Under the pieces are notes generated by a model. The model did not search any database and had not been told where the DNA came from. It worked only from the letters and a program-made list of their open reading frames with translations. The position numbers and the translations under genes are program-made. Shown one piece after another: positions 3,505 to 5,063 of a stretch of 64,000 bases of DNA. The first letter of the stretch is position 1. Every line of letters starts with the position of its first letter. The stretch comes from Eledone cirrhosa (Eukaryota). The DNA is taken from the NCBI GenBank assembly GCA_964016885.1, contig OZ024746.1:50840001-50904000 (forward strand), in the 5' to 3' direction.

Positions 3505-3508
<4 letters not shown>

Positions 3509-3952
3509 AAGTTTTATTTAAATTGTTGGGTTACAACGAGTAAATATTTATAACTGATATAAAAGCACTCAACAAGTATTTGGAGTATATTTACGATATT
3601 AAATAAATGGGAACTATATTTATAAAACCATATTTATTTCATTATATATATTTCAGGGATATCATATTAAAAATATGGTATGCCTTCTTCAGACAAAATA
3701 CAATATAAACAGTCTTATAAATAGATAGATTTGACATACCTTACAGCTTCAACTTCCATTTAAAAAGTTGATTTGGTAGTGAAAAATGTTAGGGACAGTT
3801 ATAAAAAGAAAGAAAAAAAGCGAAGAAAAAGAAGAAATGCATGCAACTAAATAGAGAGAGATAGATATAGAGAGATAGATAGAGAGAAGAAATTCATGTA
3901 AAGAAACAGAGAGAGATAGATAGAGAGAGAAAAAACACAGAGGGAGATAGAT

Positions 3953-3986
<34 letters not shown>

Positions 3987-4034
3987 AAAAATAGAGAGAG
4001 ATAGATATAGATAGAGATAGAGAGAAAGAAAATA
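3505..4034 (-). mobile_element. Family B pLTR 3' fragment (diverged) with HHR at 3630-3706
   Basis: Aligns by eye to 5318-5790 and 30368-30820. Confidence 0.85.
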
Positions 4035-4092
4035 GGTAACCTACCCTTTTAAGAAAACCCACTGTACCAATAGGAAATGTATCATATGTAAG

Positions 4093-4467
4093 GTGAACCC
4101 CCGGATAAACTGTAAAACTAGAAACGTAGTCTATAGCATAAGATGTACAGAGGGTACTTGCAGAAACATGACAACAACATACATAGGTGAGACAGCTCGT
4201 AGCATAGGTGAAAGGATAGACCAACACTGGGGGGAACTAAAAGGACGAAAAAACGGGTCAGTACTATACGAACATGCTAGACAACAACATGACGGTAACA
4301 TAGACAACATAGAAATTAGAATAATATCTAAACATAGGAATGACCCAGCAGATAGGCAAATCAGAGAGGCCAGTGAAATAGAAATTAGAAGACCAAAGCT
4401 AAACAGAAAGAATGAGTGGAACAACAACAACACCCAAACAAACAACACTGACCTAAGAGAAGTATAA
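4093..4467 (+). pseudogene. 5'-truncated PLE GIY-YIG endonuclease domain (family C-related; element fragment 4035-4998)
   Basis: CKTRNVVYSIRC..TC...YIGETARSIGERIDQH...RQIREA..I...LNRKNEW; the downstream 3' end atgaccctccccaaatataacaat matches the family C terminus. Confidence 0.88.
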
Positions 4468-4744
4468 ATAAGTAAATAAAATTAAATAAAATAAGATAAA
4501 TAAATACATACACAAGCACAATAACAACAAGCACATAAACACACACTAGTCACCCAGCAGACACAACACTATACACACTAGTCACACATCACACATAACA
4601 CTATACACACACGCAAACGCATGCGCAAAGAAGACAAAATAAAATAAGATAAACAAACAAGCAAATAAATAAATAAATATATAGACAGACTGAACAAAAA
4701 AAATGACGTAGACATACAACACAACAGGAGGAACAATGAATATA

Positions 4745-4790
4745 ACACCACTGACGATGTTGCAGATGTGCAACGAAAGATTTATGTAAA
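4745..4790 (+). ncRNA. Hammerhead-like motif with weak helix I
   Basis: CTGACGA-t-gttgca(gatg)tgcaac-GAAA-gatt-TA-tg; same architecture as the 1903 HHR, but helix I is only ~2 bp. Confidence 0.5.
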
Positions 4791-5063
4791 TTATGTAAAC
4801 TATATATATGTGTTTGTGTCTATATTGTATCTGTATTATTTTTGACCGTCGGTCAGTCAATGGCAACATTGAGGACCGAGTAAGTTAGATCACAGATATA
4901 AAAGACAGCGAGAAGCGAAAACCAACCAAACAGTGAGTGTGTTCTGTTATTAATTCTGGCAATATTACGCAAATATGACCCTCCCCAAATATAACAATAT
5001 ATATATATATATATATATATAAATTTATATATATATATATTTATATTTATATATATATATATT

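Follow-up and report, generated by a model that had tools for sequence, protein, structure and literature searches.

Insertions of Penelope-like elements (PLEs) are known to carry an inverted, 5'-truncated copy of the element and a tail at one side only, and to target (TA)n (Craig et al. 2021, PMC8557442), while inverted pLTRs, joints at microhomology, capture in trans and a dependence of each PLE family on its own terminal structures have been described by Arkhipova et al. 2013 (PMC3846280). With the anole Poseidon element PAc, both strands were cut and extended in vitro, two RT start sites defined the tail and a dimer was predicted (Frangieh et al. 2024, PMC11167929). The nearest analogues are L1 twin priming (PMC12016303; 10.1101/2022.05.18.492429) and the fusion, at translocations, of a pair of unrelated and oppositely oriented cDNAs by human L1 (10.1101/2024.12.14.628481).

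The window, i.e. the whole stretch of 64,000 nucleotides analysed here (G000:C6:50840001-50904000 of the 3.0-Gb Eledone cirrhosa assembly), has 27% GC and contains 140 merged (TA)n runs. It was studied together with 1.4 Mb of contiguous blocks (14 stretches) and with loci retrieved by searches for families B, X, C and H and a CR1-type LINE (best 40 candidates scored per search), the whole amounting to less than 0.1% of the genome. Letters for PLE families (B, X, C, H, K and so on) are our own labels. Arms were resolved by segment tiling, and families without an ORF were oriented from nested termini and hammerhead-core patterns. Clustering of the TA-facing ends yielded about 20 families, each with two nested termini 40-140 nt apart, a tailed and an untailed one.

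The segment at 3505-4998 had been proposed in a first-pass annotation to consist of two outward-facing 3' ends from different lineages, fused without a TA spacer. The assembly confirms this: a family B end (minus strand, 3506-4038) and a family X end (plus strand, 4037-4996) lie between (TA)n on both sides, they overlap by the 2 nt TA, and by their motifs the partners are of Hydra type (B) and Neptune type (X). The features are as follows.

2697..3447, same-family H unit, untailed left and tailed right
3449..3505, (TA)n target, left
3506..3594, minus strand, tail (89 nt) that marks the tailed terminus of PLE family B; the two terminus types lie 89 nt apart among B copies
3595..4038, minus strand, family B 3' region, 5'-truncated; 99% to L211 over 533 nt
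near 3651-3692, hammerhead-core-like motif in the family B half (pattern match only)
4037..4038, 2-nt microhomology joint (TA) between B and X
4037..4996, plus strand, PLE family X 3' end, 5'-truncated, untailed terminus; 99% to L121 over 959 nt
4036-4467, GIY-YIG C-terminal frame in the family X half
near 4751, hammerhead-core motif in the family X half (pattern match only)
4997..5318, (TA)n target, right

The B/X joint at 4037-4038 is direct, lacks a TA spacer and is present in the assembly. ORFs set the orientation of both halves, each of which is 99% identical to dispersed copies and carries the hammerhead-core pattern on its sense strand (pattern scan). Family sequence continues past 4038 in all 22 other B loci, and upstream of 4037 in 5 of the 7 other X loci. 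Among the best 40 of 445 candidates the B/X joint was seen in the window only, and a composite B/X element replicating as a unit was rejected on this single copy. No empty allele of the focal site was found among the best 40 candidates, the sole full match being the flanking H joint, and no second haplotype of the focal flank was found in the assembly. No target-site duplication was observed around the unit, whose flanks are (TA)n. Family X is 5'-truncated within 1-2 bases of one site in three of eight copies (window 4037, L002:1501 and L005:1501), and this site is a hotspot hit in three independent copies. B2 arms have a frequent stop: in 12 of 54 alignments they end at a distance of 259-277 nt from the tailed terminus (269-270 nt in six), corresponding to about window 3765-3782; this family B stop region may represent an RNA 5' end in the terminal repeat.

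Families B, X and C each have a single ORF with RT plus a GIY-YIG endonuclease at the C terminus, recognized by motifs in the long frames (Pfam matched no family for six proteins), and all show the PLE traits of 5' truncation, an inverted 5' copy and a tail at one end. In family B, RWR, DKT and CxCx5C motifs are present, the target is (TA)n and CCHH cysteines are lacking; an RWK-like motif, DKT, a CxCx5C linker, no CCHH and a (TA)n target are features of the Hydra clade (PMC8557442), and family B is probably a Hydra-type PLE, as placed by its motifs. Families X and C both have a Cx2-5CxxC linker (Cx4CxxC in X) and a CCHH-type endonuclease, their proteins being 63% identical, and a pattern scan of the family C frame found no DKG motif, a feature that serves, with the RT phylogeny, to tell Neptune from Nematis. 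Both would be Neptune-type PLEs, again by motif. The endonucleases of X and B are hardly alignable, and the two families probably belong to different clades, a placement based on motifs. A near-complete family C element reaches into the window from the left: its right part covers positions 1-2102, with an inverted untailed arm, and its 1091-aa open frame continues beyond the left end of the window. An 831-aa open Hydra-type frame (14159-16654) sits between direct repeats of about 4.7 kb (9335-14030 and 16717-21415, 97-99%), a pair that is probably a partial tandem with very long terminal repeats.

Two outward-facing 3' ends are the default PLE insertion here. In the blocks, counted over 1.46 Mb, 113 of 116 same-family two-armed units pair a tailed with an untailed arm (109 of 127 before reassignment of K cluster 16 and of M clusters 7 and 21 from termini to internal TA boundaries), as do 70 of the 72 units of B, C/X and H recovered with probes. 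No same-family head-to-head unit was found among the cases listed for LINE and SINE 3' ends (109 termini). The five single-family examples of the first-pass annotation proved to be inverted two-armed units (26184-26392 only weakly by self-match), with one correction: the unit given as 54352-54567 ends on the right at 54623, its tail having been overlooked.

21577..22223, same-family R unit, tailed left and untailed right
26184..26392, same-family D unit, tailed left and untailed right
37385..37600, same-family D unit, tailed left and untailed right
42822..43365, 503-nt near-perfect palindrome with a 41-nt right extension
54354..54623, same-family C unit, untailed arm of 185 nt and tailed arm of 89 nt

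Arms of a unit are truncated independently. Among 64 units examined, 53 were resolved; of these, 26 have an untailed arm and 27 a tailed arm that extends further 5' than its partner; in clearly asymmetric units the untailed arm was longer in about 20 of 38. In some units the tailed arm falls short of the full tail length and does not overlap the other arm. The arms of one unit are mostly 97-100% identical, similar to the best outside copy, and their joints overlap with a mode of 2 nt (0-3 nt in 31 of 53). Where the untailed arm is the longer, each arm has sequence absent from the other, so neither is a fold-back copy, and fold-back as the general origin of arms was rejected on the 26 units in which the untailed arm reaches further 5'; 15 of the 53 are near-symmetric and still fit such an origin, with two run-offs at one RNA end as the other possibility. 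As fold-back does not account for most arms, priming probably occurred twice, and the two-ended priming suggested in the first pass is well supported for same-family units by the pairing rule, the non-copy arms and the microhomology joints. At L289:1108-1820, a two-armed H unit has about 280 nt between its arms that were copied from less than 1 kb away (96%), an insert that appears to be locally templated. At least 40 near-identical copies exist of the 263-nt family K unit at window 55284-55546, whose internal hairpin is fixed.

These units resemble published PLE copies in the inverted 5'-truncated copy, the tail at one end, the (TA)n target and the microhomology at 5' joints (PMC8557442, PMC3846280). 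Published inverted copies derive from the same element, whereas in the present units the inverted arm is at times supplied by another PLE clade, a LINE or a SINE; published tails measure 30-40 nt, against 40-140 nt here, where the pairing was also counted (113/116). The two-strand behaviour of PAc in vitro matches the two-ended priming here, but PAc represents one family and one RNA, and the available text of that study (PMC11167929) reports no joined products or mixed templates. L1 twin priming likewise joins two opposite cDNAs from both ends of one site; its second primer, however, lies inside the same RNA and its arms barely overlap (PMC12016303). In the units studied here, both arms begin at recurrent 3' termini and usually overlap, and the mixed cases, with arms from different families, need two RNAs and do not show a second cDNA primed within the same RNA. 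L1 rearrangement joints are alike in uniting independently primed, non-homologous cDNAs in opposite orientation (10.1101/2024.12.14.628481; PMC13526784), but they connect two loci in somatic or cultured cells, as against PLEs at apparently one TA tract in a reference genome. Mixed-family PLE units were not found described in the literature searched (supplements and older subscription papers being outside its scope), nor does the available text of 10.64898/2026.07.22.740005 mention them. The geometry of single-family units is known already; neither the counted pairing rule nor the mixed partners seem to have been described in the literature searched.

The frequency of mixed partners was counted by hand from 116 index units picked by their 3' region, 15 of which extended beyond the locus. 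The 101 resolved units comprised 66 same-family inverted, 22 single-armed, 3 mixed head-to-head (L228, L252 and L133), 2 mixed head-to-tail, 1 tandem and 7 other units; mixed cases make up about 3-4% of units. Direct mixed head-to-head joints numbered nine in all, three of them in the window and three with a LINE or SINE partner. Besides the focal joint and two further window examples treated below, they are these, the names of the RTE-type LINE and the SINE being ones we presume from sequence features.

C1a4288, K tailed with F untailed
C1a70202, F untailed with C tailed
L228, B tailed with K untailed
L252, B tailed with C tailed
L133, X untailed with an RTE-type LINE
C13a62827, SINE with B untailed

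Overlaps at the mixed joints are 2, 3, 2 and 5 nt, two joints are blunt and inserts measure about 1, 2 and 4 nt; in kind they resemble the same-family joints. Exactly one untailed PLE arm is present in 8 of the 9 (p about 0.02, post hoc), in 8 of 10 if an ambiguous case with a 2-nt TA spacer is counted (p 0.055) and in 5 of 6 when only PLE-PLE pairs are taken (p 0.11). Of 36 candidates and 27 junction cases looked at, those set aside as direct mixed head-to-head joints had a spacer (C4a79997, C4a52013, L005 F/c20, W201608, C1b92796, C3a12657 and C13a7896), showed internal TA runs of one element (C4a54685 and C4a55125), were nested insertions (C1a34258, W219859 and L254) or had ambiguous structures (C1a5383, C1b48687 and C28a42078).

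Three further examples of mixed partners in the window had been put forward in the first pass. The one at 35973-36766 was confirmed as head-to-head, joining a family C untailed end to the 3' end of a LINE that we take to be CR1-type from its RT sequence. At 49503-52190, the direct joint exists (50876/50877), but the partner stops near 50945, and the arm ending at 52190 is a separate one that lies past a degenerate TATG tract. At 26549-33154, the outer ends are indeed 3' ends, but the inter-family joint is tail-to-tail with both arms 3'-truncated; since both arms at 31436-31439 lost their 3' ends, a deletion between two neighbours fits this structure.

35975..35996, minus strand, untailed terminus of PLE family C, 22 nt long and matching family C ends at 100%
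35994..36780, plus strand, CR1-type LINE 3' end, 5'-truncated; shares 3-nt microhomology with the C arm and matches three longer copies at 97%
49504..50876, minus strand, older B-related tailed arm; 71-83% to B copies
50877..50945 (right end approximate), plus strand, untailed family W1 arm (no ORF seen, ends PLE-like); 94% over 53 nt
26549..33159, B unit and family R tandem unit in tail-to-tail fusion; joint at 31436-31439 with a 4-nt overlap, deletion-type

The R portion (window 31436-33071) holds a 470-nt unit repeated 3.5 times in tandem at 98% identity, a retrozyme-like arrangement. The other direct inter-family joints comprise 3 head-to-tail (with a 3'-truncated partner) and 2 tail-to-tail. 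Five head-to-tail abutments of a truncated 5' end on an intact neighbour end, with little or no TA spacer (L005, L140, L129, C2a11247 and C4a34672), indicate that TA spacers can be tiny. Same-orientation chimeras, in which the 3' end of one family sits on the body of another, occur at L002:1503-2673 and in block C4a (28914-29896) and would stem from either a template switch or a deletion.

We think it somewhat probable that the focal segment arose in one event, in which two RNAs primed the two ends of a cut (TA)n and the cDNAs were joined by microhomology. Direct inter-family joints are distributed 9:3:2 (head-to-head, head-to-tail and tail-to-tail), against the 1:2:1 expected for random deletion between two-armed neighbours (p 0.002), and 6:3:1 outside the window (p 0.02). 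Head-to-head joints are 9 of 14 against 25% expected, in a post hoc, hand-classified count from less than 0.1% of the genome. Numbers in the mixed-joint tests are small, the head-to-head class is easier to detect, and 3 of the 9 mixed head-to-head joints were chosen by the reader who made the first-pass annotation; being post hoc, hand-classified and detection-biased, the tests lean toward one two-RNA event and are not decisive. The mixed joints are more probably due to priming on different RNAs, as originally suggested, though deletion between neighbours is a genuine rival and does occur.

That deletion is the core of the main alternative, which we regard as doubtful though credible: two elements inserted independently in one TA tract and became fused afterwards through a microhomology deletion, or else the 5' join of the second element removed the spacer and part of its neighbour, the outer 3' ends merely reflecting that most TA-facing ends are 3'. 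The 140 TA runs of the window bring neighbours close, microhomology-mediated deletions of PLE copies have been published (PMC3846280), and deletion-type joints exist (26549-33154, W209090, L210, C4a28914 and L002), the first two of them tail-to-tail and L210 joining B to the trimmed end of a neighbour with both outer ends tailed. Head-to-head pairs with short TA/CA spacers (C4a79997, C4a52013, L005 and W201608) also suit fusion of neighbours, and L252, tailed at both ends, speaks for it and against a single event, this pairing being almost never met in same-family units. Two other X copies are truncated at nearly the same base and abut TA, so a lone X and a lone B could yield the focal joint by spacer loss. 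Fusion of neighbours accounts poorly, however, for the excess of head-to-head joints (6 of 10 even outside the window) and for the one-untailed pattern in 8 of 9; moreover, about 12% of TA-facing index ends are 5', yet 3 head-to-head stand against 2 head-to-tail units.

It seems improbable that the cDNA ends of two insertion intermediates at separate TA tracts, lying kilobases from each other or on other chromosomes, became connected and the DNA between them deleted or exchanged. Such joining has been shown for human L1 (10.1101/2024.12.14.628481; PMC13526784) and permits any pairing of termini as well as LINE partners, but no positive sign of it was seen here, the flanks being TA repeats with no second flank haplotype in the assembly. 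An assembly or read chimera at this repeat-rich spot is very improbable. Although contigs of 4 of 24 listed runs, compared over 3520-4990 with 3898-4035 masked, included none that bridges the joint, its clean 2-nt microhomology is the kind that dozens of same-family joints have, and comparable mixed joints lie on several contigs.

Under the preferred reading of one event with two RNAs, the PLE endonuclease would cut in (TA)n and each side of the cut would prime one cDNA, so that each arm would be a separate cDNA, both usually made from the RNA of one family. In about 3-4% of units the second end would be primed on the RNA of another PLE, a LINE or a SINE; the two incomplete cDNAs would then be joined via microhomology and the joint sealed by host end-joining. 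A broader version, which we entertain tentatively as quite possible, is that PLE RTs prime the second end of the (TA)n cut of any retroelement via the untailed start site, that insertions routinely use two RNAs, across PLE clades and LINEs and SINEs, and that tailed and untailed starts mark the two cut strands. The first pass had gone further and proposed a dedicated system for the repair of (TA)n breaks, for which we found no support, since the elements encode an endonuclease of their own, the geometry of single-family units corresponds to described PLE insertions and mixed units are rare; no sign of spontaneous breaks or of a service to host repair was found at the loci examined here. On the preferred reading, a mixed unit would be an error mode of PLE insertion and not a separate repair system.

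The origin of PLE inverted ends and of the one-sided tail was called open in PMC8557442 and is partly answered in PMC11167929. That tailed arms pair almost strictly with untailed ones, and that arms are truncated independently, suggests that each insertion involves two cDNAs. Mixed units will mislead the building of repeat consensus sequences. If they are single events, two cDNAs can come from two RNA molecules, a question that is testable in the existing in vitro PLE system, and mixed units would offer a route for domain exchange between retroelement clades.
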